Sequence record: DRR378314_1424
Reading direction: 5' to 3' (one strand)
DNA: 20,000 nucleotides
In this document: piece by piece, positions 582 through 14,819 of the stretch
How positions within the stretch are numbered: the stretch's first letter is position 1
Layout: each line of letters starts with the position of its first letter
Notes under the pieces: model-generated
The model's database searches: none
What the model saw: only the letters and a program-made list of their open reading frames with translations
Told to the model about the DNA's origin: nothing
Made by a program: the position numbers and the translations under genes

Positions 582-1059
582 GGCCACGCTGGCCCGCCCT
601 GCGGCGCATCCCATCGTTGACAGATCCGGCTAGGGCAAACTCCGCTGGCCCGAGTTCCCGAGCGTTCATTGTTCTGTAATCCACACTGCCGTTGTGATCG
701 CCGGGGACCAATCCTCTGGGCGTCTTCCCCGCATTTTCTGCGCTGATGATGGCGGGTCCGTCAGGGCGACAAAGAGCTGGCTCCCCAGCTTCGCGACCCT
801 TGGCCCCTGTGCGGCAATCCCCGGTGACATCTGTTTTATGATTCCCGGGCGTGAATGCTTGCCAATTCGGCAGAACCTCGCCAGAACGTCACCGGATACA
901 ACGCAGGGTATATTCCACATCGACCAACACGACCACACGCATCCATTGCACGTGTTAAAAACGTGGCCTGCATTGCTAATTCGTTCCTGCCTAGTCTAAA
1001 TTTAGGACATCGGGCCGGTTTACACCATGTCAGCCACTCGTGCGGAGATAACCCTTTTC

Positions 1060-4000
1060 ATGACGCGCCCTGCACCGCATATCTCGGAGTTTCTGGCCGG
1101 CATCGGCCTGCCTCAACTGCTTGATCTGTTTTCCGCAGAAGACATTGATATGTCGACCCTGATGCTGTTGGACAAGGACGACCTGAAAGAGCTTGGCTTG
1201 ACCCTGGGCCAACGCAAGAAACTGCTGGCCGCGATGGATGCCTTGCCAGCAGCTGCGGGCGACGCAGCGCCTGCCGATGCCCCCCCCGAAGAGGCCCCGA
1301 TCCAGCTGCGCCGTATCAGCGTGCTGTTCTGCGATATTGTTGGCTCCACAGAGTTGAGCCAGCAGCACAGTATCGAAGACATGCAGATCATCATGCAGCA
1401 TTATTATCAGGTCGCTGATGACATCGCCCGACAGCATGATGGCTATCTTGTCGGCTCGCAAGGTGATGGTGTGGTCATCCTGTTCGGCTATCCGCGTGTC
1501 CTTGACGGATTTGCCGAACGCTGTGTTCAGGCGGCACAGAATCTACAACGCGCATTGGCGGAAAAGCTGGTGACCTTTGACGGACGGGCGTCGTTTCATA
1601 TCCCCACACGGATTGGCATTGCCACCGGGCAGGCCGCCGTCGGACAGGCCAGCGGGGCCCTGCGCGGAGATGCGATGCAACTGGTTGGCCCCGTGGTCAA
1701 TCGCGCCGCGCGGCTTCAGACCGTGGCCAACCCGCAATCCATTGTGGTGGACAGCAAGACCCAGCATCTGACCCGAAGTTCCGTACTTTATTCCGAGGTA
1801 GAGGCGCATGACCTCAAGGGGCTGCCCTCTGGCACTGAAGTGTTTCACGTTCTAGGGCTGCGCCATGAGGTCGAAGGCCCGGTTGCACCCGCCACGCTGA
1901 TCGGGCGTGACGGCGAGGCTGCCACCCTGCGCCGACTGTGGACGCAGGCGCAGGCCGGCACGCCGGTTACCGTCACAATCACCGGCGATGCGGGCATTGG
2001 AAAATCGACCCTGATCCAAAGTTTCGTGTCGATGCAGACCAACCCTTCGATGCGCGTCCTGCACCTGCATTGCGCTGCAATGGGTGCCCGCTCGCCCTTG
2101 TTGCCGGTGGCCAAAACACTGGATGCGCTGACCGCTTCAGGGGCGACAAACCCATCGCTCGCCAGTCTTCTCGGTGACCCGGCCCCGGAACTGCTGCACC
2201 GTGCCGCCCAGTTCCTCGGACTTGGTGCCGCACCTGCGGAAGATGTGACGCTTTCGCTGCGGGACCGTGACAGTATCCTTGATCTGCTTGGCCGCTGGAT
2301 CATCCGGGGGGCATCCGGCCCGACCCTGCTGTTTGTGGAAAACGCCCAATGGGCCGACAACTCCACTCGCGAGCTTTTGAAACGTGCCGCGGAACGTGCC
2401 CGCCGCGAGGGGGCTGCGCTGATGATGATCGCCGCAACGCGCGCAGACAGCCCCGACATCTGGATCGAACAGAAAGGCCATGAAACCCTGATCCTGCCGC
2501 CGCTGGATCAGCGCCATTGTGAAAAGCTGTTGCAGGGGATTTTTGGGAACAAGCCAATCCCGCACCCCATCCGTAACAACATCCTGAGTCATTCCGGCGG
2601 CAATCCCCTGATGCTGGAAACACTGGGCCAGGCGCAGGCCACGCAGCAACAGACAATGGTCGCAGGTTCGGTGGAAATCCCGCATACGATTTATGAATCC
2701 GTCTCCAAACGTCTTGACGGGATCCGTATGGGGCGCAGCGTGATCGAAGCCCTTGCAGTCTTGGACAGCCCAGCCAGCCCTTCCCTGTTAGCGGCGGTCC
2801 TTGATCGTGATGCCGACAGCATGAAACCGGCGATAGACGCATTGGAACAGGCCGGTCTGGTCTTGCGTGAGGGGACACAAGGACAGGAGGTGGCGACCAT
2901 CCGCCATCAGGTGTACCGAGATGTGATCTATGAACAGATCGTCGGACAATCCCGAAGGCGGCTGCACACGGCGGCCTATTCGGCGCTGGACGGATATTAT
3001 ACAGACACTGAGGCCCAGCGCCCTGATGTTCTGGCAACACATGCTCATGTCGCACGAGATTGGGAAAACACTGCCGCTCATGCGCTGGAGGCAGGCGAAA
3101 GCCTGCTGAAACGCTCTGCTCTGATCGAAGCGGGGCATTTCCTGGAAATGGCCAATGGCGCCATGCAACGGCTGCCGGGCAATGCTGCCAACAAGAAAAA
3201 ACACCTGCGTACGATCACCGGTCTCGCCTCTGTTGAACGGTCACGCTTTGGGATCGCGACGGACGCCAGTGCGGATCTTGGCACACAGGCGGTGCAACTC
3301 GCCCGCGAGCTTGGCGACAGCAAGACAGAGCTTTTAGCGCTGAACGGGCTTTATGCGCATTCATTGGTGCGGGCCAACTATCCGCAGGCGCAGGAATACG
3401 CCGAAACCCTGTTGGAAACCGCCAGCCACAGTCAGGACAAGACCTTTGTGATGATTGGCACCCGCGCCATTGGGGCCGTGGCGTTTCACCGATCCGACCA
3501 GAAAACCGCCCAGCGCAACCTAAGTCTGGCCTTGTCCCAATATGACAAGGACACCCATCTGCCTCTGGCCCATGCCCATGGCTATGACCACGCGGAAATC
3601 TGCGCGGCCTTCCTTTGCATGTCAAACTGGCTGACTGGTGATCTACAGCAATCGCGCCATTTTGGTGCCTTCTCCATCAACCATTCCCGTGAAATCGGCC
3701 ATGCCCATTCACTGGCGCAGGCAATGGCCTTTCGGGTCATGCTGGGGGCGCTTGCCCGCCATGGAACCGAACTTTCGGTGATTGCCAGCGAAGCCATTGC
3801 ATTAGGTGAAAAACACGACATCCGGGTGATGCGCGCCGCTGCCGTCCTGTTCCCTTTTGTCACCCAACTGTGCCTGCGGCCCGAACCGCCAAAACCTGCC
3901 GAGATGACTGACCTTGCCCTGCGCGTAAAAGAGTTTCGCGAGGTAAACCCCTTTAACTACGGGCCCTTGGTCGCCTCCTTGATCGCCGAAGCCTCTTTGC

Positions 4001-4353
4001 GGGCTGATGATATTGACGGCGCAGAGGCCGCCCTGTCAGAAGGTTCAACGCTTGAGCTGCGCACCGGTGAGACCTGGACAGCACCCGAATTGTTGCGCCT
4101 GCGGGCCTGCGTTGCCGCAGCGCGGGGGAAGGTCGAGATTGCCGGCCAGCTGCGTCAGGAAGCCTTGAAAAGTGCAACCCGCGCCGGTGCCCTGACGCTG
4201 GCGCTGCGGATCCTCTGCGACATTGCCGTGGCGGATCCCGGCCCGACCACAATCCAGCCTCTGCGTGACGCCCTGCAACGAATGGCATCCGATGATCAGG
4301 GGTGGGATACGCAACGCGCCACCGCCCTTGTTCAGGCCGTTGGCCTGACCTGA
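1060..4353 (+). CDS. SAM domain - class III adenylate/guanylate cyclase - AAA/STAND ATPase - TPR-like helical protein
   Basis: SAM domain (FLAGIGLPQ...DDLKELGLTLGQRKKLL); cyclase motifs VLFCDIVGST, GDG, RIGIATG and VNRAARLQ; Walker A GDAGIGKS; HSGGNPL motif; Ala/Leu-rich helical C-terminus. Start is 1060 (GGAG at 1044-1047) or 1027. Confidence 0.9.
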   Translation: MTRPAPHISEFLAGIGLPQLLDLFSAEDIDMSTLMLLDKDDLKELGLTLGQRKKLLAAMDALPAAAGDAAPADAPPEEAPIQLRRISVLFCDIVGSTELSQQHSIEDMQIIMQHYYQVADDIARQHDGYLVGSQGDGVVILFGYPRVLDGFAERCVQAAQNLQRALAEKLVTFDGRASFHIPTRIGIATGQAAVGQASGALRGDAMQLVGPVVNRAARLQTVANPQSIVVDSKTQHLTRSSVLYSEVEAHDLKGLPSGTEVFHVLGLRHEVEGPVAPATLIGRDGEAATLRRLWTQAQAGTPVTVTITGDAGIGKSTLIQSFVSMQTNPSMRVLHLHCAAMGARSPLLPVAKTLDALTASGATNPSLASLLGDPAPELLHRAAQFLGLGAAPAEDVTLSLRDRDSILDLLGRWIIRGASGPTLLFVENAQWADNSTRELLKRAAERARREGAALMMIAATRADSPDIWIEQKGHETLILPPLDQRHCEKLLQGIFGNKPIPHPIRNNILSHSGGNPLMLETLGQAQATQQQTMVAGSVEIPHTIYESVSKRLDGIRMGRSVIEALAVLDSPASPSLLAAVLDRDADSMKPAIDALEQAGLVLREGTQGQEVATIRHQVYRDVIYEQIVGQSRRRLHTAAYSALDGYYTDTEAQRPDVLATHAHVARDWENTAAHALEAGESLLKRSALIEAGHFLEMANGAMQRLPGNAANKKKHLRTITGLASVERSRFGIATDASADLGTQAVQLARELGDSKTELLALNGLYAHSLVRANYPQAQEYAETLLETASHSQDKTFVMIGTRAIGAVAFHRSDQKTAQRNLSLALSQYDKDTHLPLAHAHGYDHAEICAAFLCMSNWLTGDLQQSRHFGAFSINHSREIGHAHSLAQAMAFRVMLGALARHGTELSVIASEAIALGEKHDIRVMRAAAVLFPFVTQLCLRPEPPKPAEMTDLALRVKEFREVNPFNYGPLVASLIAEASLRADDIDGAEAALSEGSTLELRTGETWTAPELLRLRACVAAARGKVEIAGQLRQEALKSATRAGALTLALRILCDIAVADPGPTTIQPLRDALQRMASDDQGWDTQRATALVQAVGLT

Positions 4354-5675
4354 ACAAAAGCGCCGCCAAGGGTCAGGCGTTCCAGCAGTTTGAAAACAAG
4401 CGGCATGTCATGTTGACGGCCCAGCCGGTTCGCAATCTCTTGCAAGGATGCAGCAGGACGACAGGCCGCCGCAACATCCAGCGCGGTCACCGGCCCCAGC
4501 CCGGTCAGAAAATCATCCTGCACGCGAAGTTTAATTGCCGGTGCCCAATAAATGCGATCCTGTGACAGTACCGGGGCGCGGGTCAGTGGCGCGGCCAGCG
4601 TTACCGGACCTTGCAATACAAGCGCCGCTGGGGCGGATTGCACTTCGCGCGCGCTGCGGGCGGTCCAGAACGCGGTTTGAAACCGTGATTGATCCGCATA
4701 GGCACGATCCGTGGCAAGCTGCGCGGCAACCACCGCTGCCTGATGTTTGTGGCGCAAAAAACTCTGCGCCGCGTGGTCATCGCCAGTAGGATCAAGGATG
4801 GTCAAAGCGGCAATCGCCGTTTGAACCCCGCTGCGCAATGCATGGACCAACCCATGTGATGCAATCGGGTCCCGCGCCAATGCGGCATCCCCCACCAGCA
4901 AATGCCGCGCTGTGACAACAGGGTCCCCCACCGCAGACAGGCCCGCAGCAGCAGGTTTCCCCACAGTGATTGCAGATAGATAGGGGAAACAATCCGACTC
5001 CGCCAAACAAGCCCTCAGGTAAGCCGCGCGCGCCGCCGCCCCTTTTCCCGCAAGCGCTGCTGCGGGTTGGAACACCACACCTTGAACCTGACCTTCGGGC
5101 AATGAACAGGCCCAGAACCAGCCATCTGGCAAAGCCTCCAACCCCATCATAAAGGCGGGCGACTCCCCCCGCGCGGTAAATGGCAGGGCTGTGAGATCCG
5201 TGGCAGGGCGTTTGTTTGCATGACGTCCCCGGGCGTCAATCACCAGATCACACTGAACCTTGCCCGCATCCGTGTGCAATTGAACACCTTCGCCACACGG
5301 CCCAACGTCACGCACCCGCGCTTTTAACGCCCGTGCATATCGCAAGGCCTCCTCACGCAGGCTTTCATGCAAAGCACCACGGTGCAGCAGCAATGGCCCG
5401 GCACCTTCAAACGTGCGTAGCTCCGGGGCCTCACGCCAGACCATCTGCATCGCTTCTGCCGGTCCATCGCTGACGGCCCAGAATGCCTGAAGCAAGCCGA
5501 GCTCTTCTGCCAATGGTGCGCCGGATGGTGGAAAGCTCTCGATACCCTGACCCTTGTGAGGCGTGAGCGGATCAATCAGCAGGACGTCGATACCCGCCAG
5601 CCCCAGCTGGCGTGCGGCAATTGCCCCCGCCGGTCCTGCCCCCAATACAGCAACCTGCGCCTTATGCCTGCGCAT
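4332..5675 (-). CDS. FAD-dependent monooxygenase, LodB/GoxB/QhpG-like (putative tryptophylquinone-forming flavoprotein)
   Basis: GAGPAG Rossmann motif, ESFPP (cf. GESLPP), IDARGR, GWFW, VGDAALARDPIASHGL, and late YADQSRFQTAFWTAR, followed by a C-terminal extension. ATG at 5675 overlaps the radical SAM stop by 14 bp; the ORF track start at 5699 is the alternative. Confidence 0.8.
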   Translation of the reverse strand: MRRHKAQVAVLGAGPAGAIAARQLGLAGIDVLLIDPLTPHKGQGIESFPPSGAPLAEELGLLQAFWAVSDGPAEAMQMVWREAPELRTFEGAGPLLLHRGALHESLREEALRYARALKARVRDVGPCGEGVQLHTDAGKVQCDLVIDARGRHANKRPATDLTALPFTARGESPAFMMGLEALPDGWFWACSLPEGQVQGVVFQPAAALAGKGAAARAAYLRACLAESDCFPYLSAITVGKPAAAGLSAVGDPVVTARHLLVGDAALARDPIASHGLVHALRSGVQTAIAALTILDPTGDDHAAQSFLRHKHQAAVVAAQLATDRAYADQSRFQTAFWTARSAREVQSAPAALVLQGPVTLAAPLTRAPVLSQDRIYWAPAIKLRVQDDFLTGLGPVTALDVAAACRPAASLQEIANRLGRQHDMPLVFKLLERLTLGGAFVQVRPTA

Positions 5676-6984
5676 CAAACCAATCCGGCTGCGCCGCACT
5701 CAAGCGCCCGTAGGCGCGCAGCCCGTAGTCCAGCCAGCCCCGCACAAAGTCGCAGGCCGGTCGCCCCGCATGCAGCACCTCCTGATGGCAGCCACCGCCG
5801 CACAGCCGCCGGGCCCAACAGGTTTGGCACGGGGTTTGGCGTTCTACCGTGCGGGCATCTAGAAAGGCCGCGCGCGCGACATCATCCGGCCCGCTCTCCA
5901 GATCCCCCATCGCCCCCAGCGGATCTTTGACAAAGCGATGACAGGCGGAATAATCGCCAGCAGCATCCACTGCAAGATAATCACGCGCCGCACCACAGCC
6001 ATGGCTGCGCGGGCTGCCGCGATGAAGTTCGCCCAGAACCGTGGCGAGATTGGCAAAAGGATGGCTGCGCCCCGCGAGTGTCGCGCGCATCCAAGCGTCA
6101 CCACAGGCCGTCATCGCCGCCAGCAATTGTGCAAAATCCTGCCCGGCCAAGGCACCCTGCCCCGTGGGCGACGAAATCATCGGCGACACCCCAACCGAGG
6201 CAAAACCCAGCGCGGCAATATCATCAACCACCTGCAGCAGATCGAGATTTTGCGGCGTCACAGTCACCCGCGCGCCCAGCGAAATCCGGTCGCGATGCGC
6301 CAGCAGCGGTGCAAGGCGCTGCGCGACGCGGGCAAAGCTGCCCTTGCCCGCGCGATCAGGGCGCAGGCGGTCGTTCACCGCCTTGCCACCATCAAGGCTT
6401 ACCGTCACGGCAAACCGGTGGCGGGCGAAAAACGCAGCGTCCTCGGGGGAAATCAACGTGCCATTGGTGGTCAGGGAATAGCCCACCTGAATGGCCCGCG
6501 CAGCACCACGTTTATTTGCGTAAGTCACGGATTTTCGGATCAAATCCCGCGCCACCATGGGCTCCCCCCCCATAAAGGCAATCTTGACCCCGCCACCCGG
6601 AACGGTGGCATAAATCAACTGGTCAATCGCACGTTTGGCGACTGTCCAACCCATGCGCGTATCCGCCCCGCCAAAACTGCCACCCGCCGCGTAGCAATAG
6701 CCACAGGCCAGATTACAGGTTTGCGATACCGTCAGGGCCAGCGCCCGTACCGGATGGATTTCTGTATCAGGTGGCGTGCTAAGCGGCACAGCGTCGAGCC
6801 CCAAACGCGCCAGCTCAGGCGCGGCAGCTGCATCACCGGCCAGCAAGGCCGCACGCAGTTTCGTAGCCTGCGCATCCGACAGGCCAAAGATTGCAGCCGT
6901 TTCTGCCATCAGCACCAGATCATCCGCCACATGGGCCAGACCGCTGACCGGCTTCTGCATCAGATCAGGCAAAACCACCGTCAT
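5662..6984 (-). CDS. Radical SAM/SPASM protein maturase (QhpD/CteB-like) with probable N-terminal RRE
   Basis: CNLACGYC (CxxxCxxC), FMGGEP, TTNGT and VSLDG motifs; SPASM cysteines CGAARDYLAV...ACHRF and CQTCWARRLCGGGC...C; ~80-aa N-terminal extension. ATGA overlap with the upstream gene at 6981-6984. Confidence 0.92.
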   Translation of the reverse strand: MTVVLPDLMQKPVSGLAHVADDLVLMAETAAIFGLSDAQATKLRAALLAGDAAAAPELARLGLDAVPLSTPPDTEIHPVRALALTVSQTCNLACGYCYAAGGSFGGADTRMGWTVAKRAIDQLIYATVPGGGVKIAFMGGEPMVARDLIRKSVTYANKRGAARAIQVGYSLTTNGTLISPEDAAFFARHRFAVTVSLDGGKAVNDRLRPDRAGKGSFARVAQRLAPLLAHRDRISLGARVTVTPQNLDLLQVVDDIAALGFASVGVSPMISSPTGQGALAGQDFAQLLAAMTACGDAWMRATLAGRSHPFANLATVLGELHRGSPRSHGCGAARDYLAVDAAGDYSACHRFVKDPLGAMGDLESGPDDVARAAFLDARTVERQTPCQTCWARRLCGGGCHQEVLHAGRPACDFVRGWLDYGLRAYGRLSAAQPDWFDAQA

Positions 6985-8792
6985 TTCAGGTTTGCAAAAA
7001 ATGGTATGCCGATGTTCTTGCGGGCAAGCGCCAAGGCCATGTCGCTGAGGTCATGCATGGCATCACGGGCCTTTTTGATTTCGGTGTTGGCCTGGGGCAT
7101 ATCGCCCAGGTTTGCCTCGATCAGATACCCTTTGCCCAGGGCCTCAAGTGCAAGGTCAATCAGATGCAGCGCCGGTTGTACCTCTGCGGCGTCCGGCTTG
7201 GCCTCTTTGACGGGGCGCAGATACAGGGCTTCCTGCGCGGCATAAGGCTGCAGTATCCGCATCACATCGCGGAATTTTTGATAGTGCTGCATCCCGTCGC
7301 TGTCGATCCGAACGGCCAGCTGGTACAGGCCTTCGGGAAAGTGATCCATATACTCGCGCAAATAGGCCACCAGCTTGACGTATTCGGTATCCAGATCCCC
7401 GCCGGGGCGTTCAATATCAACAAAGTTCTGCAAGACAGCCTGTGTTGCCGGGCGCAATTCACCGGTCCCGCTATGCCCGGTCTTACTGTGCGGGTCCGCT
7501 TCGATCTTGGTCGGTGATAGGACGGGTTCATATGTGCCAACTTCCGGATAGGCGGCAAAAATCAACCACAACGTCTGGTTCACCCAGCGCAGATGGGTCA
7601 TTTCACTCAGCGCTACAGATAGGATCAACTGCCGCGCGGCGCGCAGATCTTCTGTCAGGCCGGGCCATGCGGCCTCTTGATCCGGCGTCACCTCATCCGG
7701 TTCGCGCAGGCTGAAATAGGCGTAAAGATACTCCAACGCCAGCGTCAGCTCCATCCCTGCCAATTCGTGCAGGTCGTCGATCAATTCTTCCAGTTTTTCG
7801 TAAGGCTCTTGCGGCTGCAACTTTAGCAAATCCGTTGTCCCCTCGGCCTCCTGCCCTTGCAGAACAAAATCCAGCTCCTCCCAATGCAGGTTGATTTCGT
7901 ATGGATCGTACCGATCCGGGCGCGCCTTTTCCAAAGTGGTCTGCGCCGAGACATCCTTGAGCGGCAAATGCCGTCTGCGCATCCAGTCGATAAAGGTAAC
8001 TGCCTGCGCCGGATCATCCTTATCGGTGCCATCAGGCAGCTGTTGTGGATCATCCACCTCGCCCAAGACAACATCGGGATGGTTTGACGCCCAGTAATGA
8101 CAGGCGCAATCCCGAAAATCATGGGTCCAGGGGCTGCACATGGAGGAAGTAAGTTCACCGGGGTGATAGACCGGATCAATCATCCCCTCTTCGTTCAGAA
8201 ACATGCGCCGCCGGCCGGTCAGCACCACAGGCGCGCCACTGGGTGATCCGTCAGGGCCGCGTTGCGTCAGGGCAATGGTCAGAGGTTTCTCTGCTTCAAT
8301 CAGGCGAATAATCCACCATACAGTTTCACCCTCATAAGGGACCAAACCGACACCGTTCTGATACAGCGAATAGTCATACATCATGATCCGTTTGCCGTCC
8401 TGTTCGACAAAATGCAGATACCATGTGCCACTGCCCAGCGCCGTACCGGCGGGACCGGCAAATTGTTTCTTCAGGTCAGTGACCCAATCGGGACCGTCAT
8501 CGGTATATTTATCCGCAATGATCGGATCACCCTTGGGGAAAGCATAGGTCAGCCGCGCCCCCTGTGTGCCATCCGGCCCGGCAGGGGTGATGCCAAGGAA
8601 TTCAAACACCAGCCCCGGAAAGAACCGCACATCCAATTGGCGCAGGTCGAATTCCAACCCCGGAAAACAGTTACCGACACCGGATTCCATCAAGGTCGAC
8701 ACCGGATTGCCCAATACCGGTTCGCGGTAGGCCGGATTGCCGTCAGCATCAGCCTTGCGGGCCTTGTTCAATTGTCTGGGTCCGGCTGTCAT
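6981..8792 (-). CDS. LodA/GoxA-like CTQ-cofactor (C-terminal) module fused to a ferritin-like domain
   Basis: GNCFPGLE, PGELTSSMCSPWTHDFRDC, YWASNHPDVV and WEELDFV match the LodA C-terminal motifs (PG.E; PGDLT..M..PWQ.DF..C; WWP..RPD.V; W..LGF). A ferritin-like region follows: ELTLALEYLYAYFSL, EMTHLRWVN, FVDIERP, HYQKF. ATG at 8792 has GGAGG 7 nt upstream and an ATGA overlap. Confidence 0.8.
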   Translation of the reverse strand: MTAGPRQLNKARKADADGNPAYREPVLGNPVSTLMESGVGNCFPGLEFDLRQLDVRFFPGLVFEFLGITPAGPDGTQGARLTYAFPKGDPIIADKYTDDGPDWVTDLKKQFAGPAGTALGSGTWYLHFVEQDGKRIMMYDYSLYQNGVGLVPYEGETVWWIIRLIEAEKPLTIALTQRGPDGSPSGAPVVLTGRRRMFLNEEGMIDPVYHPGELTSSMCSPWTHDFRDCACHYWASNHPDVVLGEVDDPQQLPDGTDKDDPAQAVTFIDWMRRRHLPLKDVSAQTTLEKARPDRYDPYEINLHWEELDFVLQGQEAEGTTDLLKLQPQEPYEKLEELIDDLHELAGMELTLALEYLYAYFSLREPDEVTPDQEAAWPGLTEDLRAARQLILSVALSEMTHLRWVNQTLWLIFAAYPEVGTYEPVLSPTKIEADPHSKTGHSGTGELRPATQAVLQNFVDIERPGGDLDTEYVKLVAYLREYMDHFPEGLYQLAVRIDSDGMQHYQKFRDVMRILQPYAAQEALYLRPVKEAKPDAAEVQPALHLIDLALEALGKGYLIEANLGDMPQANTEIKKARDAMHDLSDMALALARKNIGIPFFANLK

Positions 8793-10606
8793 ATTTTTTC
8801 CTCCGCGGCGGGCGTTTCGACCTGTGGCTGCACGCTGTGCTTCCATTCTCCCTCCAGTTTTTCGAGGTACTTCATCAGCAGGTCATATTGCCGACGCGTG
8901 ACTGACAGCGGTACCCCCATCGAATGGCGCATATAGGGCGGCATACGCATGTCGTAGGTTTGGGCAATGGTCACACGCGGATCGCGAAATTCAATATCAT
9001 CCGGCCCGTTTGCGCCAAAATCAACCGATGGCCCTTTTTGCACACCGGGGATTTTCGCCAGCTCTCCCACATGGGCAAACGGCGGACGTACAATGCGGCG
9101 CACACGGTCAGGATCGCGCAGCAGGAAGGCCCGCAGGATCGGGCTATCGCACATGCGGGCATGCACCTGTTGCACCACTTGGGTATAGGGCAGACGGTCA
9201 TTCGTGCCCGATCGGGGCTCTATTGTGTCACCCTGCCCCGGTGTATATTCCGGCACCAGGCTGGCATAGGGCGCATCACTTTCGCGCATGGATTTCGGCC
9301 CCAGATGCGGGGTGATACCGGCATCCCAGTTGGGATCGTTTTCATTGGGTTCACTCAGCAATTGGGCATTGCCATCCAGCGCCCAAGAGCGGCGTTGATC
9401 CAGATTGATCAGGCTGGCGGTTTCGAAAATTCGGCGGAACAAGTCCAGAATTTCAACCGGTGTTTCGTCAATATCAAGCGTTGCAGGCGGCAGATCACGG
9501 TCTTCCAATTCGTCTTGTATCGAATACATCGGACGTTTGTCCGGTGCGAAATCGGGAGGGCCTGCCATGGCACGGGCCTGTGCCACATGCGCCTTGCCCT
9601 CCACTGCCATCTGCGCCGTCAGCACCAAATCGCAGGTATCGTCGATCAAGCCCCAGCCATTTCCCGACCCGACACGCGCGCCATCATAGCTGTCCATCGG
9701 GGTGGGCCATTTGGGTGTGTTGTCAGTGCGGAAATTATACCCTGACCACGGGGTGTCGGAACTCAGGATGCGGTTTTCCTTGCGGGTCATTTTGTGGATC
9801 GGGCCGTATTCCGTCATCGGTGGTTCAAATCCACCTGCCGGCAGGGGAGAGGCCGGTGCCTTGGCCGCTTCGGGTGGACCAAAGCTGTCGCCCTTGCCGG
9901 GAATAAAGCGGATCCGCACCTGATCCAGCCGGGTTTTACAGCTGATGTTTTCGAGGTTTTCTTTAAACGTCCTGATCTTGCCCAGTGGCAACGGCGCATC
10001 CTCGCGCACCAGTGGCACCTGCCCTTCGGTATGCGGGCTGATCGCGTCCAGATGATGAGTCTTATAGTGATCCGCAGCAAACACCTTGCGGGCCACCGCC
10101 GCACAGGAGGCCAGTTTGGTGCGCGATTCCGCTTTGCGGTTGGCCGCCTCGACAGTGAATTGCAGATGTTTCAGGCTGGTGCCGCGTTTCTCAAGGAAAT
10201 GACGTGTCACCGGCACCTGCACTACGGTGCCGTCAGGATCCTGAAGCCGCGCCCAAAGTTCAAAGAAAGGGGCCACCGGTTTGATCTTGCCATAACGGTC
10301 CTTGAAAGTGACGCGCATTGGTGTCTGCACCTTCAGGGTAAATGGGTGGTGGCCGTTGCCCTTGACCGAGGTTTCGATCAGGCTGGGGGCGGGTTCGATC
10401 ATGGTCTGTACCCCGCGTGCCGGATTTTCATCCAGTTTCCAGCGATAGGCGGGCATCGGTTCTTTCGAGCGCCCCACCCGTGCAATTGCCATCGGCGGGT
10501 CAAAGAAAATGCCCAACATCCGGCCCTGCGTCGGATCACGGCCACACCATGGTTCGCAAGTTTCAGGATCTGCATGGGTGCAGGGTTTTAATCTATCGGT
10601 CGTCAT
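8789..10606 (-). CDS. LodA/GoxA-like N-terminal module (lacks the cofactor residues)
   Basis: PPMAIARVGRS (cf. HPAIGIARVGNS), FKDRYGKIK, FTVEAANRKA (cf. WTVHLANKKA), DDTCD, GPPDFAP and LSVTRRQY occur in LodA order. Start is 10606 (AGGGA upstream); 10615 and 10642 are alternatives. Confidence 0.8.
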   Translation of the reverse strand: MTTDRLKPCTHADPETCEPWCGRDPTQGRMLGIFFDPPMAIARVGRSKEPMPAYRWKLDENPARGVQTMIEPAPSLIETSVKGNGHHPFTLKVQTPMRVTFKDRYGKIKPVAPFFELWARLQDPDGTVVQVPVTRHFLEKRGTSLKHLQFTVEAANRKAESRTKLASCAAVARKVFAADHYKTHHLDAISPHTEGQVPLVREDAPLPLGKIRTFKENLENISCKTRLDQVRIRFIPGKGDSFGPPEAAKAPASPLPAGGFEPPMTEYGPIHKMTRKENRILSSDTPWSGYNFRTDNTPKWPTPMDSYDGARVGSGNGWGLIDDTCDLVLTAQMAVEGKAHVAQARAMAGPPDFAPDKRPMYSIQDELEDRDLPPATLDIDETPVEILDLFRRIFETASLINLDQRRSWALDGNAQLLSEPNENDPNWDAGITPHLGPKSMRESDAPYASLVPEYTPGQGDTIEPRSGTNDRLPYTQVVQQVHARMCDSPILRAFLLRDPDRVRRIVRPPFAHVGELAKIPGVQKGPSVDFGANGPDDIEFRDPRVTIAQTYDMRMPPYMRHSMGVPLSVTRRQYDLLMKYLEKLEGEWKHSVQPQVETPAAEEKI

Positions 10607-12188
10607 GGCGTTCATTCCCTGTCTTATCCTCGGGTGTGTCATGCACCGGTGGTTTCTGATCGGGTTTCAGCCCCAGACTCTGTTCAAACCAGAACATATT
10701 GTGCGGATCAAACTTGGCCTTTGCCGTTTGCAAACGCGGTAGGTTGGTGCCGAAATAGGCCTCCAAAAACCCTTTGGTCCCGCGACGCGGATAGTTTTGG
10801 TAACGGTGGCCATTGCCCATAGGGGCAACGATACCACCCAGCCCGTCAAGCCAGCCAATCGACGCTTCCTTATGGGTGTCGAACGTCCAAAAGGCCCAGC
10901 TAAACAGATCAACCGATGGCGTGCGGTGGAAAAAAGCCATCTCGTCGGGTTTCGGGTCAGCGATTGCGCCGCCATAGAATTCCATCGCGATGAAACAGGT
11001 TTTGTCCGGCGCTTCGAGAAAATGATCAACGACATTGCGCCAACGGTCCGCACTGTGATGTTCCTCGATCAGCCACCCTTCGACCAGCGGTTTGGTGTTC
11101 ATAGACACGGTTGGCATGTCATGACCTGCCGGATTTGCGGTCTGCAACAACAGCTCGTTCAGGCGGGTGTAATGGTGTTTATGTGTCCAGATTTCCACAT
11201 CTTTGCGCGGGTCTTCCAATGTGGCCAGCAGGGGGCCAAGGGCAGCCTCAGCTTCGGCGCGGGAACCATCATAAAGACCGCGCAGAGACAGGCAGGGGAT
11301 TTGCCCGTCAGGGTGATCTGCATCCGGCAGATACATCAGCAAGGCCTGATGCCCCATCTTGGGCGGGCCGGAATTGGAGTATTCCGCCTGCAAGGTTTCC
11401 AGCACCCGGCAGATCCGCTGAATATCCGCCTCATGTTTGTGGCGCATGTTCCAGCGCAGGCCAAAACCAAAGAACTTACGGTCCAGCGGCACAGGGTCAT
11501 AGGTCACTTCCAGAAGGATACCAAACTGGTTGCCGGTCCCACCGCGGATCGCCCAAAACAGATCGGGGTTTTCTTCCGCACTGGCGCTCAGCACAGACCC
11601 ATCCGCCAGTGCCACCTTCACACCGATCACACGGTCACAATTCATCCCAAACAGCCGCGAGGTGAAACCGTAGCCTCCGCCCATCATATATCCGGCCACA
11701 TTCACAGTCTCACACCCACCGCCGGGCAGATGCAGTTTGTGATGGTCCAGCATGCGGTTCAACTTGCGAAAGGTGACACCGGGCCCACAGCGCACGGTCG
11801 GCGTTTGCCTATCTACCTCCAGATGGTTCAAGCCAGAGGTGTCAATCACCACCTGATCGTTTACCGAATAGCCGGCGGTGCAATGCCCACCGGAACGGGC
11901 AGTCACCTGCAACCGTGATTTGCGCGCAAACTCCAGCGCGGCAAGCACATCCGTCTCGCATTCGCAAAACACAATGACCTGCGGGTATTGCTGGTAGGTA
12001 TGCATGAAAACCATGCGGTCGTCATTGTATCCGGGAGCCCCTGCCAATTGAATACGGCCGCTGAGGCGTTGTTGTAATTTGTCTAAATGTTTTTGTTTGT
12101 AGTCAGGTAGGCCGGATTCTTTGGTCTTAAATGTTTTCCACTTCGCTTCGTGGCGATGATGGTGGTGGCGATGGTCACCATGCGTCAT
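10593..12188 (-). CDS. FAD-binding oxidase, berberine-bridge-enzyme/VAO family, probably bicovalent FAD
   Basis: RSGGHC (covalent His), GGGCETVNVAGYMMGGGYG (covalent Cys position), DLFWAIRGG, and C-terminal YQNYP...YFGTNLPRL...KFDPHNMF. Strong RBS GGGGGAG upstream. Confidence 0.92.
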   Translation of the reverse strand: MTHGDHRHHHHRHEAKWKTFKTKESGLPDYKQKHLDKLQQRLSGRIQLAGAPGYNDDRMVFMHTYQQYPQVIVFCECETDVLAALEFARKSRLQVTARSGGHCTAGYSVNDQVVIDTSGLNHLEVDRQTPTVRCGPGVTFRKLNRMLDHHKLHLPGGGCETVNVAGYMMGGGYGFTSRLFGMNCDRVIGVKVALADGSVLSASAEENPDLFWAIRGGTGNQFGILLEVTYDPVPLDRKFFGFGLRWNMRHKHEADIQRICRVLETLQAEYSNSGPPKMGHQALLMYLPDADHPDGQIPCLSLRGLYDGSRAEAEAALGPLLATLEDPRKDVEIWTHKHHYTRLNELLLQTANPAGHDMPTVSMNTKPLVEGWLIEEHHSADRWRNVVDHFLEAPDKTCFIAMEFYGGAIADPKPDEMAFFHRTPSVDLFSWAFWTFDTHKEASIGWLDGLGGIVAPMGNGHRYQNYPRRGTKGFLEAYFGTNLPRLQTAKAKFDPHNMFWFEQSLGLKPDQKPPVHDTPEDKTGNERHDDR

Positions 12189-12473: not shown

Positions 12474-12905
12474 TTACGCCGCATCAGGCGCTTTGCATAA
12501 CCTCCAGAACTCTTGCAAAGTCTTAAGCACATCAGAGAGCTCTGACGCGCTGTCCGGTTTTACAATATAGCCATTCGCATTGTTCTGATACGCAAGCTCC
12601 ACATCTTTTTTGCTTGCTGATGTTGTAAAGACAAACACACGCGCCAGTTTGATTTCTTCGGTTTTTCTCAACTTCGCAAGAAATTCATGCCCGTTCATGC
12701 GCGGCATGTTGATGTCCAGCAAGATGACATAGGGACGGTCAAGCCGCTCGCTGAGCGCCTCGTCACACAGGATTTCCAGTGCTTCCACGCCATCTTTCGC
12801 GCGTAACAGGGATCCGGTCGACCCCAGTTTCCTCAACGACCGTCTGAGTATTTCCACGTCTACGTCATTGTCTTCGACCAGTAAGATGTTCATGTCATGT
12901 TTCAT
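12474..12905 (-). CDS. Single-domain response regulator (Rcp1-like receiver)
   Basis: ILLVEDN, ILLDINMPRMNG, FTTS and ANGYIVKP motifs. ATG at 12905 lies directly after the kinase stop; the longer ORF-track start overlaps the kinase. Confidence 0.92.
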   Translation of the reverse strand: MKHDMNILLVEDNDVDVEILRRSLRKLGSTGSLLRAKDGVEALEILCDEALSERLDRPYVILLDINMPRMNGHEFLAKLRKTEEIKLARVFVFTTSASKKDVELAYQNNANGYIVKPDSASELSDVLKTLQEFWRLCKAPDAA

Positions 12906-12906
12906 C

Positions 12907-14688
12907 TTATGCGGCCCTTTGTGACAGAAGAGATGTGGACTGCGACAGAGTACAAGGCCAGTCGAAATGGAAGGTCGCCCCCCTTCCAAGTTCAGACTGA
13001 ACCGTGATCTTACCACCATGGCGTTCGACCGCTTTTTTGACAATCGCCAGACCAATACCGGTGCTTTCGGGCATATGAGCCAGTCGAAGCGTCTGAAATA
13101 CCTTGAAAATTCGATCATGAAACTTCGGATCGATACCCGGACCGTTATCGGATACTGAAAAACAACAACGATCTCCTTCAAGTTTGGCCGATACAACAAT
13201 CTGCAGCGGATCCGTACCGTCGTAGTATTTCACGGCATTCCCGATAAGGTTTTCCAAAACACGGCGCAGATTCACGGTATCCACATCAACGGCTTCGATA
13301 TCTCCGTTCAGCACCAGTTGGTCTTCCCCCAGGCCCAGATCCAGGATCAAATCAACAAGCGCCCCTTTCAGATCCAGATGCCCAGTTTCACCGGCATGCA
13401 CATCAACCTTTGCATACTCCATGATGCCTTGCGTCAGTTGATTCATACGAACAACGCGGCTTTGAATCAGATGCAGGTTTTGGCGAACTTCCGGGTTTGC
13501 GTCTGCTGATGCAAAATACTCTTCAAGGTCCTCCTCGATCATCTCTGTCAGCCCGTTGATCCCGCGGATCGGCGTTTTCAGGTCATGGGACGCGATATAG
13601 GCAAATTCCTCAAGCGCCTCATTCTTCACCGACAATTCCTTGTTCATCGTGTTAAGCCTTGCGGTCTTGGCCTTTAGGGAAACGGTCACCTCGTCAGCAT
13701 AGGAAATCGCCCGCTTGTTCGCCCGCGCCATGAGGAACAGCAGCGCGATAATCAACGCCTCGATCACCAGACCGGCAATCAGAATATATGTTGATTGCGA
13801 ATAGGTGTTTTGCCCGCGAAACGCGAGGTTGCTCCGAATGTCGACGGTCCAGGTGCGCCCGTAAAGATTGATCGCAACCAGATCCGAATGCATCGGGTCG
13901 GCGTCATGTAATTCATCTATTGCAGCATGTTCATCGTAAATCAGGCTGCCGTCATCATGGATGCTAAAACGCACATTGCGCAGCTCTGTTGCCAGCAACC
14001 CTTGCATCAGCTTGTGAACAACAAATGGGGCATAGACCGCGCCGGCGGGCACACCGTTGTTTTCAAAGGGCGCATAGAACAGAAATCCCGGCGTGCTGCT
14101 TTCATCCTGAACAAGGGTGATGGGGCCGGTGATCTGTGACGTGCCTGTATCTCTGCTGGCCAGTGCGGCCGTGCGCCGGTTGGTTTCATGTGCGACGTCC
14201 AGCCCGATGGCCGCCGCATTACTGCTTTCCGGCTCGATATAGGTAATCGGCATATAAAATGACTGCTCATGTTCCGGGAAAATCCGGAATTCCGGTCGGC
14301 TGCCGCGTTGTTCGGCCAGATAGGCGTCCAATGTCTGTGCAGTTTGGAAATGGATCACACCGATCCCGTTAATACCCGGATATTTTTCATGAATATCCAA
14401 TGTCTGTGCAAAGGCATGCCAATCCTCATAGGAGATATCCCCGCCATGTGACTCAATGGCGGCCACGCCCGCCCAAAGTGCATCCTCGTATTTTTCCATG
14501 CGGTCCACTATCAATGCCAAAGCGCGATCGCGCGCGGCCTCAAAACGCAGGCTGACCCGTGTTTCAATTTGCTGCCGCGAAAACTGCCAGGCGAACAGGG
14601 TCAAACACAGGGAAAGAGTAACCACAATAACATGGATCGCTTTGATCCGGCTTTCTGCATTTGCAGGTATTTCATGCATCTGAGTCAA
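12907..14688 (-). CDS. CHASE-domain sensor histidine kinase
   Basis: Two TM helices flank a CHASE domain (YPGINGIG, YIEP, AIGLD, ITLVQD, GRTW). H-box FAYIASHDLKTP, N-box NLIGNAVKY, DNGPGI and GIGLAIV are present. TTG at 14688 follows AGGAGG; alternatives are 14679 and 14724. Confidence 0.92.
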   Translation of the reverse strand: MTQMHEIPANAESRIKAIHVIVVTLSLCLTLFAWQFSRQQIETRVSLRFEAARDRALALIVDRMEKYEDALWAGVAAIESHGGDISYEDWHAFAQTLDIHEKYPGINGIGVIHFQTAQTLDAYLAEQRGSRPEFRIFPEHEQSFYMPITYIEPESSNAAAIGLDVAHETNRRTAALASRDTGTSQITGPITLVQDESSTPGFLFYAPFENNGVPAGAVYAPFVVHKLMQGLLATELRNVRFSIHDDGSLIYDEHAAIDELHDADPMHSDLVAINLYGRTWTVDIRSNLAFRGQNTYSQSTYILIAGLVIEALIIALLFLMARANKRAISYADEVTVSLKAKTARLNTMNKELSVKNEALEEFAYIASHDLKTPIRGINGLTEMIEEDLEEYFASADANPEVRQNLHLIQSRVVRMNQLTQGIMEYAKVDVHAGETGHLDLKGALVDLILDLGLGEDQLVLNGDIEAVDVDTVNLRRVLENLIGNAVKYYDGTDPLQIVVSAKLEGDRCCFSVSDNGPGIDPKFHDRIFKVFQTLRLAHMPESTGIGLAIVKKAVERHGGKITVQSELGRGATFHFDWPCTLSQSTSLLSQRAA

Positions 14689-14819
14689 ACTTTGATCCTC
14701 CTGTTGGAATCTCTGCCTACTCAAAATGTATTGATATTCGATTTATCTTTTTTACCTGTTTGTATGACGCCCGATCGCTTGCCTGTCAGCGGATACCCAC
14801 GCCAAAATCCATGGTGCGA

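Follow-up and report, generated by a model that had tools for sequence, protein, structure and literature searches.

We found that a 603-residue protein (hereafter F603), encoded within a 20,000-nucleotide stretch of DNA (the window; sequence record DRR378314_1424), is the predicted cofactor-carrying half of a two-gene relative of the LodA/GoxA quinone oxidases. In 76 of 80 genome loci and 35 of 41 metagenome loci of its family, the gene lies beside a gene for a QhpD-like radical SAM enzyme, which in the window is accompanied by a QhpG-like flavoprotein. These are the two kinds of enzyme that bacteria otherwise use to cross-link and oxidise the small cofactor subunit (QhpC) of quinohemoprotein amine dehydrogenase (QHNDH). 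F603 thus looks like part of an undescribed fourth kind of cysteine-tryptophylquinone (CTQ) enzyme, although the cofactor itself is inferred from sequence comparison alone. The features of the window are as follows.

1027..4353, plus strand: divergent SAM-domain/adenylate-cyclase/AAA (STAND-type) regulator
4332..5699, minus strand: QhpG-like flavoprotein monooxygenase
5662..6984, minus strand: QhpD-like radical SAM/SPASM enzyme
6981..8792, minus strand: F603, with a LodA-core-like N-half and a ferritin-like C-half
6993..7814, minus strand: ferritin-like four-helix domain of F603 (residues ~327-600)
7869..8396, minus strand: F603 residues 133-308, homologous to the C-terminal ~175 residues of LodA-like proteins
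8073..8138, minus strand: core motif C219-S-P-W-T-H-D225-F-R-D-C229-A-C231-H-Y-W234-A-S-N-H-P-D240, with a proposed C229-W234 quinone flanked by proposed thioethers C219-D225 and C231-D240
8646..8672, minus strand: N-terminal motif N41-C42-F-P-G-L-E47-F-D49
8789..10642, minus strand: U617, the 617-residue partner subunit, equivalent to LodA residues ~2-424
10593..12188, minus strand: FAD_binding_4/BBE-type oxidase, an accessory first gene of the operon

To determine whether the cysteine pattern described in the first-pass annotation was real, we translated the gene from the ATG at 8792. The resulting 603-residue protein has Cys only at positions 42, 219, 229 and 231, and the interval 8073-8669 given by the annotation runs exactly from the C42 codon (8669-8667) to the D240 codon (8075-8073); the observation was therefore correct. 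The start at 8792 overlaps the stop of the upstream gene (ATGA), and the same overlap joins the gene to the radical SAM gene at 6984. The annotation had likened this pattern to that of QhpC, so we examined PDB 1jju_C/1jmx_G and four QhpC genes from genomes. These showed C7...PGWE16, followed by C27-x5-D33-x3-C37-x3-C41-x-W43-x5-D49. The first QhpC gene found (genome G002, locus L081) departed from the PDB sequence after residue 45 and continued in an ABC-transporter-like frame, so other genomes were used. Cys37/Trp43 is the quinone and Cys41-Asp49 a thioether (PMC7876137). In F603, C219-x5-D225-x3-C229 has the same spacing as in QhpC and W234-x5-D240 equals W43-x5-D49, whereas the Cys-to-Trp loop is one residue shorter and the third Cys sits 3 rather than 2 residues before the Trp.

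The pattern was more than chance. All four Cys, W234, D225, D240 and E47 were invariant in 115 of 115 homologues of 41-100% identity, a set that includes the window's own two entries and from which six of 121 sequences had been dropped beforehand for length outside 540-660 aa. In a wider phmmer search without any motif filter, which gave 464 clusters at 50% identity, the core pattern was in register in 144 of the 146 cluster representatives examined; the two exceptions were fragments of 276 and 283 aa. We also found 207 relatives in a collection holding one genome for each of 185,579 species. The family spans Proteobacteria, Acidobacteria, Actinomycetota and Cyanobacteria.

We next compared F603 with known quinoproteins. 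F603 gave no PF08992 (QhpC) hit, and its Pfam score for LodA_C (PF18417) was 24.3 bits, just under the cut-off of 25; no NCBIfam model covers it. Profile-profile comparison using hhalign nevertheless clearly aligned residues 133-308 with LodA-like cores (probability 92.5%, E 5e-7, 155 aligned columns). C229, W234 and D225 fell in the invariant Cys, Trp and Asp columns of 12 LodA-like proteins, and C229 and D225 aligned with LodA C516 and D512; the quinone Trp of LodA is W581. By contrast, none of these 12 proteins had a Cys at the position of C219 or C231, and their D240 column was N or D. QhpC aligned with the LodA-like core (E 1.9e-5), in agreement with the shared ancestry suggested by the annotation. 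A direct comparison of QhpC with F603 residues 180-325 picked the expected register but was not significant (E 0.24), and QhpC against the full F603 alignment gave only a spurious hit in the ferritin domain (probability 0.3%).

The U617 protein had no Pfam or NCBIfam hit, and phmmer searches of F603 and U617 against PDB sequences found nothing meaningful. However, the U617 model resembled the N-terminal ~420 residues of LodA: of 50 Foldseek hits at E<=0.001, the 18 examined were all GoxA/LodA (E ~4e-8), and a structural alignment (VIA-align) to 3weu_B residues 2-424 gave Z 12.8 with 326 aligned residues, rmsd 4.9 and 19% identity. Four full-length natural fusions of U617 to F603 exist (representatives P0247, P0254, P0272 and P0277). 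Fold searches with the whole F603 model returned only ferritin-like chains, its LodA-like half being small and partly of low confidence. The C-half scored 36.6 bits for Pfam Ferritin-like PF12902 (cut-off 22.3) and aligned to 3hl1_B with Z 19.5, 227 aligned residues and rmsd 3.0. E348, E397-x2-H400, E461, D497/D499 and H503 are conserved in this domain; that they bind metal is inferred.

We then characterized the neighbouring genes. The radical SAM enzyme scored best against QhpD (TIGR03906) among 62 NCBIfam families, with 305.6 bits, and next against PapB, with 250.3 bits. The QhpD score is below the equivalog cut-off of 453, profile positions 1-87 were unmatched, and the first ~73 residues of the enzyme do not match the profile. 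Relatives scored 267-314 bits, and QhpD followed by PapB were the best families in 5 of 5 enzymes tested. The CxxxCxxC (C90, C94, C97) and SPASM auxiliary-cluster cysteines (C330, C348, C386, C389, C395, C399, C411) were invariant in 24 of 24 sequences. QhpD makes Cys-to-Asp/Glu non-alpha thioethers (NCBIfam descriptions; PMC11951088). PapB makes thioethers of this type as well. The flavoprotein scored 218.1 bits against QhpG (NF049967; cut-off 240) over profile positions 1-415 of 423, compared with 90.2 for GoxB and 47.4 for LodB. Among counterparts at other family loci, that of L078 scored 270.8 bits for QhpG and passed the cut-off, whereas those of L076, L118 and L140 scored 136.8, 101.5 and 74.5, respectively. 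QhpG was the best match in 5 of 5 family loci tested, whereas LodB/GoxB was the best match in 7 of 8 at LodA-like loci. The BBE-type oxidase, identified by Pfam, had a tblastn hit in 68 of 80 loci, but none in the six cyanobacterial-type loci or in the distant subfamily. The regulator was likewise assigned by Pfam, and its tblastn hits recurred next to the cluster in most loci; the L118 counterpart scored 551 bits to TIGR03903, below the 705 cut-off.

To assess the association with the radical SAM gene, we examined loci retrieved from genomes (with patterns covering residues 221-228 and 44-53) and from metagenomes (with patterns containing C219, C229 and C231, for which reason Cys conservation in this second set was not used as evidence). 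The radical SAM gene was adjacent in 76 of 80 genome loci, across six or more phyla and with two different gene orders, and in 35 of 41 metagenome loci of a 27-33%-identical subfamily. Ten of the 11 misses had too little contig beside the gene, and the remaining locus (L020) has ~1.3 kb left and looks decayed. The annotation had proposed comparing homologues with and without a radical SAM neighbour; because, L020 apart, no family member with enough flanking DNA lacks the gene, we made this comparison against canonical LodA-like loci. No QhpD-like radical SAM gene lay within +-10 kb in any of 12 such loci, where the single radical SAM gene found was HxsB. C219 and C231 are family-specific additions that occur together with a QhpD-like radical SAM enzyme and a QhpG-like flavoprotein, and none of these three features occurs in ordinary LodA-like systems. 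F603 is the only conserved non-maturase protein of the cluster with invariant Cys, and the nearest genome searched (completeness 100%) has no QhpC (0 matches to PF08992).

Taking these results together, the annotation's interpretation was partly supported. The comparative evidence supports F603 as the cofactor-bearing subunit, C229 and W234 at the quinone positions, and, as inference only, C219-D225 and C231-D240 thioethers installed by the radical SAM enzyme. The annotation's further suggestion of a C42-E47 crosslink was not supported: C42 is S/T/A/F in 34 of 123 representatives that carry the N-terminal motif, although E47 and D49 stay conserved. Indeed, 21 of 25 metagenome loci without this Cys still have the radical SAM gene, the other four being cut contigs. 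In addition, in the QhpC-to-LodA-like alignment the PGWE of QhpC lies just upstream of the core, which carried over to F603 corresponds to about residues 200-210 rather than residue 42. The proposal that the first ~40 residues form a leader was also not supported, as residues ~25-60 are among the best conserved in the family and are internal in natural fusions of 1110-1201 aa. No protease or exporter was seen in the operon.

In the explanation we favour, with moderate confidence, U617 and F603 together form a cytoplasmic, split LodA/GoxA-type quinoprotein that in some organisms is one polypeptide. F603 would carry the cysteine tryptophylquinone, built from C229 and W234 with D225 as the conserved active-site Asp, in a loop as short as that of QhpC. 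As in QhpC, the radical SAM enzyme would first tie the loop down with Cys-S-to-Asp-methylene thioethers, most likely C219-D225 and C231-D240, the second ring enclosing W234; the QhpG-like flavoprotein would then dihydroxylate W234, and the C229-W234 bond and the quinone would form last. The ferritin-like domain probably holds a dimetal centre that serves oxidation or electron transfer. Our analysis establishes the homology, the residue correspondences and the co-occurrence of the genes, whereas the presence of the quinone, every chemical step, the pairing of the crosslinks and the role of the ferritin-like domain are inferred, with no direct evidence of any modification. Moreover, both proposed acceptor residues can be explained without crosslinks: D225 is the Asp conserved in all tryptophylquinone enzymes (PMC7876137), and the D240 column is N or D in LodA-like proteins without a radical SAM enzyme, so that only the Cys are specific to this family. 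The pairing also rests on sequence rather than geometry, as the motif region (218-326) and residues 1-48 have pLDDT below 50 in the model. Predicted complexes of the radical SAM enzyme with F603 residues 1-330 scored 0.62, 0.67 and 0.66, but one unrelated control scored 0.60, so that these scores count neither way.

Other explanations appear unlikely but are not excluded. The radical SAM enzyme may act on F603 with other partners or chemistry, such as C219-D228 or C231-D228/D225 pairs, a sulfur-to-alpha-carbon link or direct help in making the C229-W234 bond, in which case the QhpC-like register is only approximate. Three acidic residues (D225, D228 and D240) lie within reach of two spare Cys, D228 stays D/E in the wider family, ring sizes differ from QhpC by one residue, pairings such as C219-D228 are equally possible, and the enzyme scores below the QhpD cut-off. 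However, the C-x5-D and W-x5-D spacings equal those of QhpC exactly, the two best-scoring families are both Cys-to-Asp/Glu side-chain thioether formers, and no radical SAM Cys-Trp ligase is known to us.

It is somewhat less likely that C219, C229 and C231 are metal ligands, a redox disulfide or catalytic thiols, with the radical SAM enzyme working on U617, a small molecule or an unseen peptide in a pathway that also uses the BBE oxidase. A C-x-C pair plus a third Cys could bind a metal, close relatives of U617 carry a Cys-rich N-terminal extension, the operon holds other oxidases, and PF12902 domains also occur in small-molecule pathways (the UniRef name 'iminophenyl-pyruvate dimer synthase' appeared in the homologue search). 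By contrast, C229 and W234 occupy the quinone positions of a homologous family, and we rejected a Cys2His2 site (C219/H224/C231/H238) because H224 and H238 are W/Y and K/R, respectively, in the distant subfamily. We rejected U617 as the target because it has no invariant Cys and its extension is missing below ~65% identity, and a hidden precursor-peptide gene because the genes overlap or abut. The BBE oxidase is missing from 12 of 80 loci and from the distant subfamily, whereas the radical SAM gene is not. Least likely of all, the resemblance to QhpC may be convergent or trivial, with F603 an ordinary LodA-like protein matured by its flavoprotein alone. Indeed, LodA and GoxA need only a flavoprotein (PMC7876137, PMC11951088), and QhpC against F603 is not significant. 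Against this stand the co-occurrence across phyla and changes in gene order, with translationally coupled overlaps, and the joint presence or joint absence of the extra Cys, the radical SAM enzyme and the QhpG-type flavoprotein.

A 2025 review (PMC11951088) names only three CTQ enzymes, QHNDH, LodA and GoxA, and describes two separate maturation routes, whereas this large family combines the LodA scaffold with the QHNDH maturation enzymes. Our literature searches found no paper on the family, although they did not cover subscription journals and some members may already be among the 168 LodA-like proteins listed with PMC4417212. If the favoured explanation is confirmed, QhpC would be a trimmed-down LodA core, as the profile alignments support; thioether caging would go with a short Cys-to-Trp loop; QhpD-type enzymes would be able to cross-link large proteins; and a tractable expression system would exist for asking why QhpG-type and LodB-type flavoproteins differ. 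A bolder reading, which we consider possible but tentative, is that this is a fourth, widespread class of CTQ enzyme and the evolutionary bridge between QHNDH and LodA/GoxA: a LodA-fold protein, split or fused, whose quinone loop is caged by radical-SAM-made Cys-Asp thioethers exactly as in QhpC. A QhpD/PapB-type ranthipeptide maturase would then work on a 600-1200-residue enzyme with no leader peptide, and the quinone would be wired to a built-in ferritin-like dimetal centre instead of hemes or free O2.

Among known systems, PapB-type ranthipeptide and SCIFF maturases, the second and fourth best family matches of the radical SAM enzyme, make Cys-to-Asp/Glu side-chain thioethers but act on short leader-bearing peptides, and no peptide gene fits between the genes here. 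Anaerobic sulfatase-maturing enzymes (anSME), a weaker match (105.6 bits), are SPASM radical SAM enzymes that modify a large enzyme rather than a peptide, but they oxidise one Cys/Ser to formylglycine and make no crosslinks. The ferritin-like protein CC_0557 of Caulobacter vibrioides (PDB 3hl1; Pfam PF12902) shares the fold of F603 residues 327-600 but is a stand-alone protein of unknown function; the Caulobacter control genome also gave a LodA_C match.

LodA (L-lysine epsilon-oxidase) and GoxA (glycine oxidase) share with this system the fold of their N-terminal ~420 residues, here on a separate polypeptide, the aligned quinone Cys, Trp and Asp, and an adjacent flavoprotein of the same superfamily; an association with PF12902 ferritin-like genes has been noted for fungal lodA-like loci (PMC4417212). 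The window system differs from them in being split into two genes, in its Cys-to-Trp loop of 4 residues (13 to 32 in the 12 LodA-like proteins examined and 64 in LodA), in two or three extra invariant Cys, in its fused ferritin-like domain, and in its QhpG-type flavoprotein and radical SAM enzyme; the word 'radical' does not occur in the 2015 survey of LodA-like proteins (PMC4417212). QhpC, with its maturases QhpD and QhpG, shares the short quinone loop, the C-x5-D-x3-C and W-x5-D spacings, a Cys 2-3 residues before the Trp and the best family matches of both maturases. However, QhpC is an ~80-residue periplasmic subunit with a cleaved 28-residue leader, partners QhpA/QhpB and helpers QhpE/QhpF, none of which was seen among the six window proteins scanned, whereas F603 has 603 residues (up to ~1200 when fused) and no colinear equivalent of the C7-E16 ring.

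To determine whether the proposed cofactor subunit indeed carries the cysteine pattern described in the first-pass annotation, we translated the minus-strand ORF running from the ATG at 8792 to 6981. The ORF encodes 603 residues with Cys only at positions 42, 219, 229 and 231, and the annotated interval (8073-8669) runs exactly from the C42 codon to the D240 codon. The ATG overlaps the stop codon of the upstream gene (ATGA), and the same overlap joins the 3' end to the radical SAM gene. The operon and its surroundings therefore read as follows:

12474-14724, minus strand: two overlapping ORFs (241 and 605 aa) upstream of the operon, which from their translations alone look like a response regulator and a sensor histidine kinase
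10593-12188, minus strand: FAD_binding_4/BBE-type oxidase, first gene of the operon
8789-10642, minus strand: 617-aa protein with no known domain, here U617
10520-10606, minus strand: Cys-bearing N-terminal extension of U617, residues ~13-40
6981-8792, minus strand: the 603-aa protein, here F603
6993-7814, minus strand: ferritin-like domain of F603
5662-6984, minus strand: radical SAM/SPASM enzyme
4332-5699, minus strand: flavoprotein
1027-4353, plus strand: divergently encoded 1108-aa protein with a SAM domain, an adenylate-cyclase domain and an AAA/STAND domain

We next checked the QhpC pattern used for comparison in the annotation. PDB chains 1jju_C and 1jmx_G and four genomic QhpC genes showed C7...P-G-W-E16, followed by C27-x5-D33-x3-C37-x3-C41-x-W43-x5-D49. 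Cys37/Trp43 form the quinone, and Cys41-Asp49 is a thioether (PMC7876137). F603 has C219-x5-D225-x3-C229-x-C231-x2-W234-x5-D240. The observation made in the first-pass annotation was thus accurate. In another genome (G002), the qhpC reading frame departs from the PDB QhpC sequence after residue 45 and runs on into an ABC-transporter-like sequence, which may reflect a deletion or an assembly fault.

To establish what kind of protein F603 is, we searched Pfam and NCBIfam. Pfam returned a ferritin-like domain (PF12902, residues 345-464) and a LodA_C match just below threshold (24.3 against 25 bits), whereas NCBIfam has no model for F603 or U617. A profile of 34 homologues picked out LodA weakly in the PDB, with C229 aligned to LodA C516, the quinone Cys, and D225 to D512. 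We then collected 12 canonical LodA-like genes from 401 Pseudomonadota genomes. These share the motif P-G-x-x-T...P-W-x-x-D-x3-C, a loop of 13 to 32 residues, and then [FYW]-W-[PGS]-x-x-x-P-[ND/P]-x-V, while F603 reads P-G-E-L-T-S-S-M-C-S-P-W-T-H-D-F-R-D-C-A-C-H-Y-W-A-S-N-H-P-D-V-V. Alignment of the F603 profile against the LodA-like profile with hhalign gave a probability of 92.5% and an E value of 5e-7 over 155 columns (F603 residues 133-308). C229, D225 and W234 fell in the invariant Cys, Asp and Trp columns, with a 16-column gap in F603 where LodA-like proteins have their long loop. W234 is therefore the homologue of the quinone Trp.

The AlphaFold model of U617 (pLDDT 77) matched only GoxA and LodA strongly: the 18 Foldseek hits examined, of 50 at E<=0.001, were all these two proteins (best E ~4e-8), and VIA-align gave a Z score of 12.8, with 326 residues aligned to LodA 2-424. 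F603 residues 327-600 matched the ferritin-like protein 3hl1 (Z 19.5). Acidic and His residues typical of dimetal four-helix bundles are conserved in this domain, with E348, E397-x2-H400, E461, D497/D499 and H503 kept across both subfamilies, as expected for a dimetal site, although metal binding is inferred. This closest solved ferritin-like structure (3hl1, CC_0557) is from Caulobacter vibrioides, and the control genome of that species also has a LodA_C match. In addition, four metagenomic proteins of 1110-1201 aa (P0247, P0254, P0272 and P0277) are full-length fusions, joining U617-like and F603-like halves in a single polypeptide through a linker of about 35-100 residues. Taking these results together, U617 and F603 are the two halves of one LodA-like enzyme carrying an extra ferritin-like domain, and F603 carries the cofactor residues, as inferred from homology.

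To assess conservation of the extra cysteines, we examined 121 homologues, six of which were dropped for length. All four Cys, W234, D225, D228, D240 and E47 were invariant in 115 out of 115 homologues down to 41% identity. A motif-free phmmer search of 1.84 billion representatives with residues 1-330 found 464 clusters at E<=0.001. Of the 150 examined, 146 contain the core, and 144 of these have C219, C229, C231, W234 and D240 in register, the two exceptions being short fragments. By contrast, none of the 12 LodA-like proteins has a Cys at the C219 or C231 position, although LodA itself has C507 one residue off.

We then examined gene neighborhoods at 80 genome loci from Alpha-, Beta- and Gammaproteobacteria, Acidobacteria, Acidimicrobiia and Cyanobacteria. 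tblastn detected U617 in 80 out of 80 loci and the radical SAM gene in 76 out of 80. Three of the four misses are contigs that end at F603. The fourth, at the start of a Mangrovicoccus ximenensis contig, is an apparently decayed copy of the cluster: only the last ~65 residues of U617 remain, F603 is matched only to residue 560 and is annotated as fused to an amidohydrolase (P0058), and no radical SAM gene lies in the 1.3 kb that remain. The gene order changes to U617-radical SAM-F603 in the 6 cyanobacterial-type loci and in one Bryobacteraceae locus. In a subfamily only 27-33% identical to F603, 35 out of 41 metagenome loci showed the radical SAM gene immediately upstream, and the six misses all have under 1 kb on the relevant side. 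By contrast, none of the 12 canonical LodA-like loci had a QhpD-like radical SAM gene within +-10 kb; the one radical SAM gene present there is HxsB (549 bits).

The FAD_binding_4/BBE-type oxidase leads the operon in 68 out of 80 genome loci but is absent from the 6 cyanobacterial-type loci and from the distant subfamily, so it is accessory. tblastn hits to the divergent 1108-aa protein recur beside the cluster in most loci. Its counterpart at one family locus (L118) resembles the 'TOMM system kinase/cyclase fusion protein' TIGR03903 (551 bits, below cut-off), and similar genes lie near 2 of the 12 canonical LodA-like loci.

The radical SAM enzymes of the family were best matched by QhpD (267-314 bits, below the 453 cut-off) and next by PapB in 5 out of 5 tested. 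The flavoproteins were best matched by QhpG in 5 out of 5 tested (218, 137, 271, 101 and 74 bits), with the protein from locus L078 exceeding the QhpG cut-off. Flavoproteins beside canonical LodA-like genes were instead best matched by LodB or GoxB in 7 out of 8. U617 has no invariant Cys. The U617 proteins of the Sulfitobacter clade do carry an N-terminal extension with three Cys, a Trp and several Asp/Glu (C21, C29, C33, W32), which could be a metal knuckle or a second modification site, but it is lost in relatives below about 65% identity. The nearest genome examined has no QhpC gene, and there is no room in the operon for a peptide gene. Thus, the extra Cys, the QhpD-like enzyme and the QhpG-type flavoprotein appear together and are absent together. 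This comparison is the superfamily-level version of a test proposed in the first-pass annotation, namely Cys conservation in homologues with versus without a radical SAM neighbor.

By analogy with QhpC maturation (PMC7876137, PMC11951088), the radical SAM enzyme would link C219 to D225 and C231 to D240, the QhpG-like enzyme would dihydroxylate W234 inside the second ring, and the C229-W234 bond and the quinone would follow. Whereas the alignments and the co-occurrence of the genes are results of the analysis, every step of this scheme, including formation of the quinone itself, is inferred. Both Asp are also conserved for reasons unrelated to crosslinks, since the D240 column is N/D in LodA-like proteins, and other pairings are possible. 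In addition, the structural model of F603 is unreliable in residues 1-48 and 218-326.

Further investigation showed that the interpretation offered in the first-pass annotation was supported only in part. The annotation had suggested a possible C42-E47 crosslink, which our data do not support. C42 is Cys in 89 of the 123 representatives that carry the N-terminal motif; in the rest it is S (18), T (11), A (3) or F (2). Among the metagenome loci, 25 lack this Cys, and 21 of those still show the radical SAM gene, while E47 and D49 stay invariant regardless. In the profile alignment of QhpC to LodA-like proteins, the PGWE of QhpC falls on the G-P-L-x-G stretch just before the P-G-D-L-T motif. Carried over to F603 through the F603-LodA-like alignment, this corresponds to about residues 200-210, which hold no Cys, so C42-E47 is not the colinear counterpart of C7-E16. 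The annotation had also treated the first ~40 residues as a leader. However, residues 25-60 are highly conserved and lie inside the fused proteins, and they are therefore part of the mature enzyme and not a removable leader.

The searches found no description of this family in the literature they covered, which did not include supplements or subscription journals. The 2015 survey of LodA-like proteins (PMC4417212) does not contain the word 'radical', although it notes ferritin-like genes near fungal lodA-like genes, and a 2025 review names three CTQ enzymes (PMC11951088). This LodA-like protein differs from the canonical ones in its extra Cys, its QhpD-like radical SAM neighbor and its QhpG-type flavoprotein, with the chemistry still unproven.

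To evaluate the shared ancestry of QhpC and the LodA core suggested in the annotation, we aligned four QhpC sequences (Neff 1.5) against the LodA-like C-terminal alignment, which gave a probability of 77% and an E value of 1.9e-5 over 105 columns. QhpC aligned along its whole length with the last ~145 residues of LodA-like proteins. QhpC C37, D33 and W43 fell on the invariant columns, and W-W-P-A-Q-V-P-D fell on [FW]-W-P-A-R-x-P-[ND], as in the F-W-P-A-R-V-P-N motif; we found no statement of this homology in the literature consulted. A direct comparison of QhpC with F603 was not significant (E 0.24), although the register was the expected one. F603 has the LodA fold context together with the short loop, the extra Cys and the maturases of QhpC, so it sits between the two.
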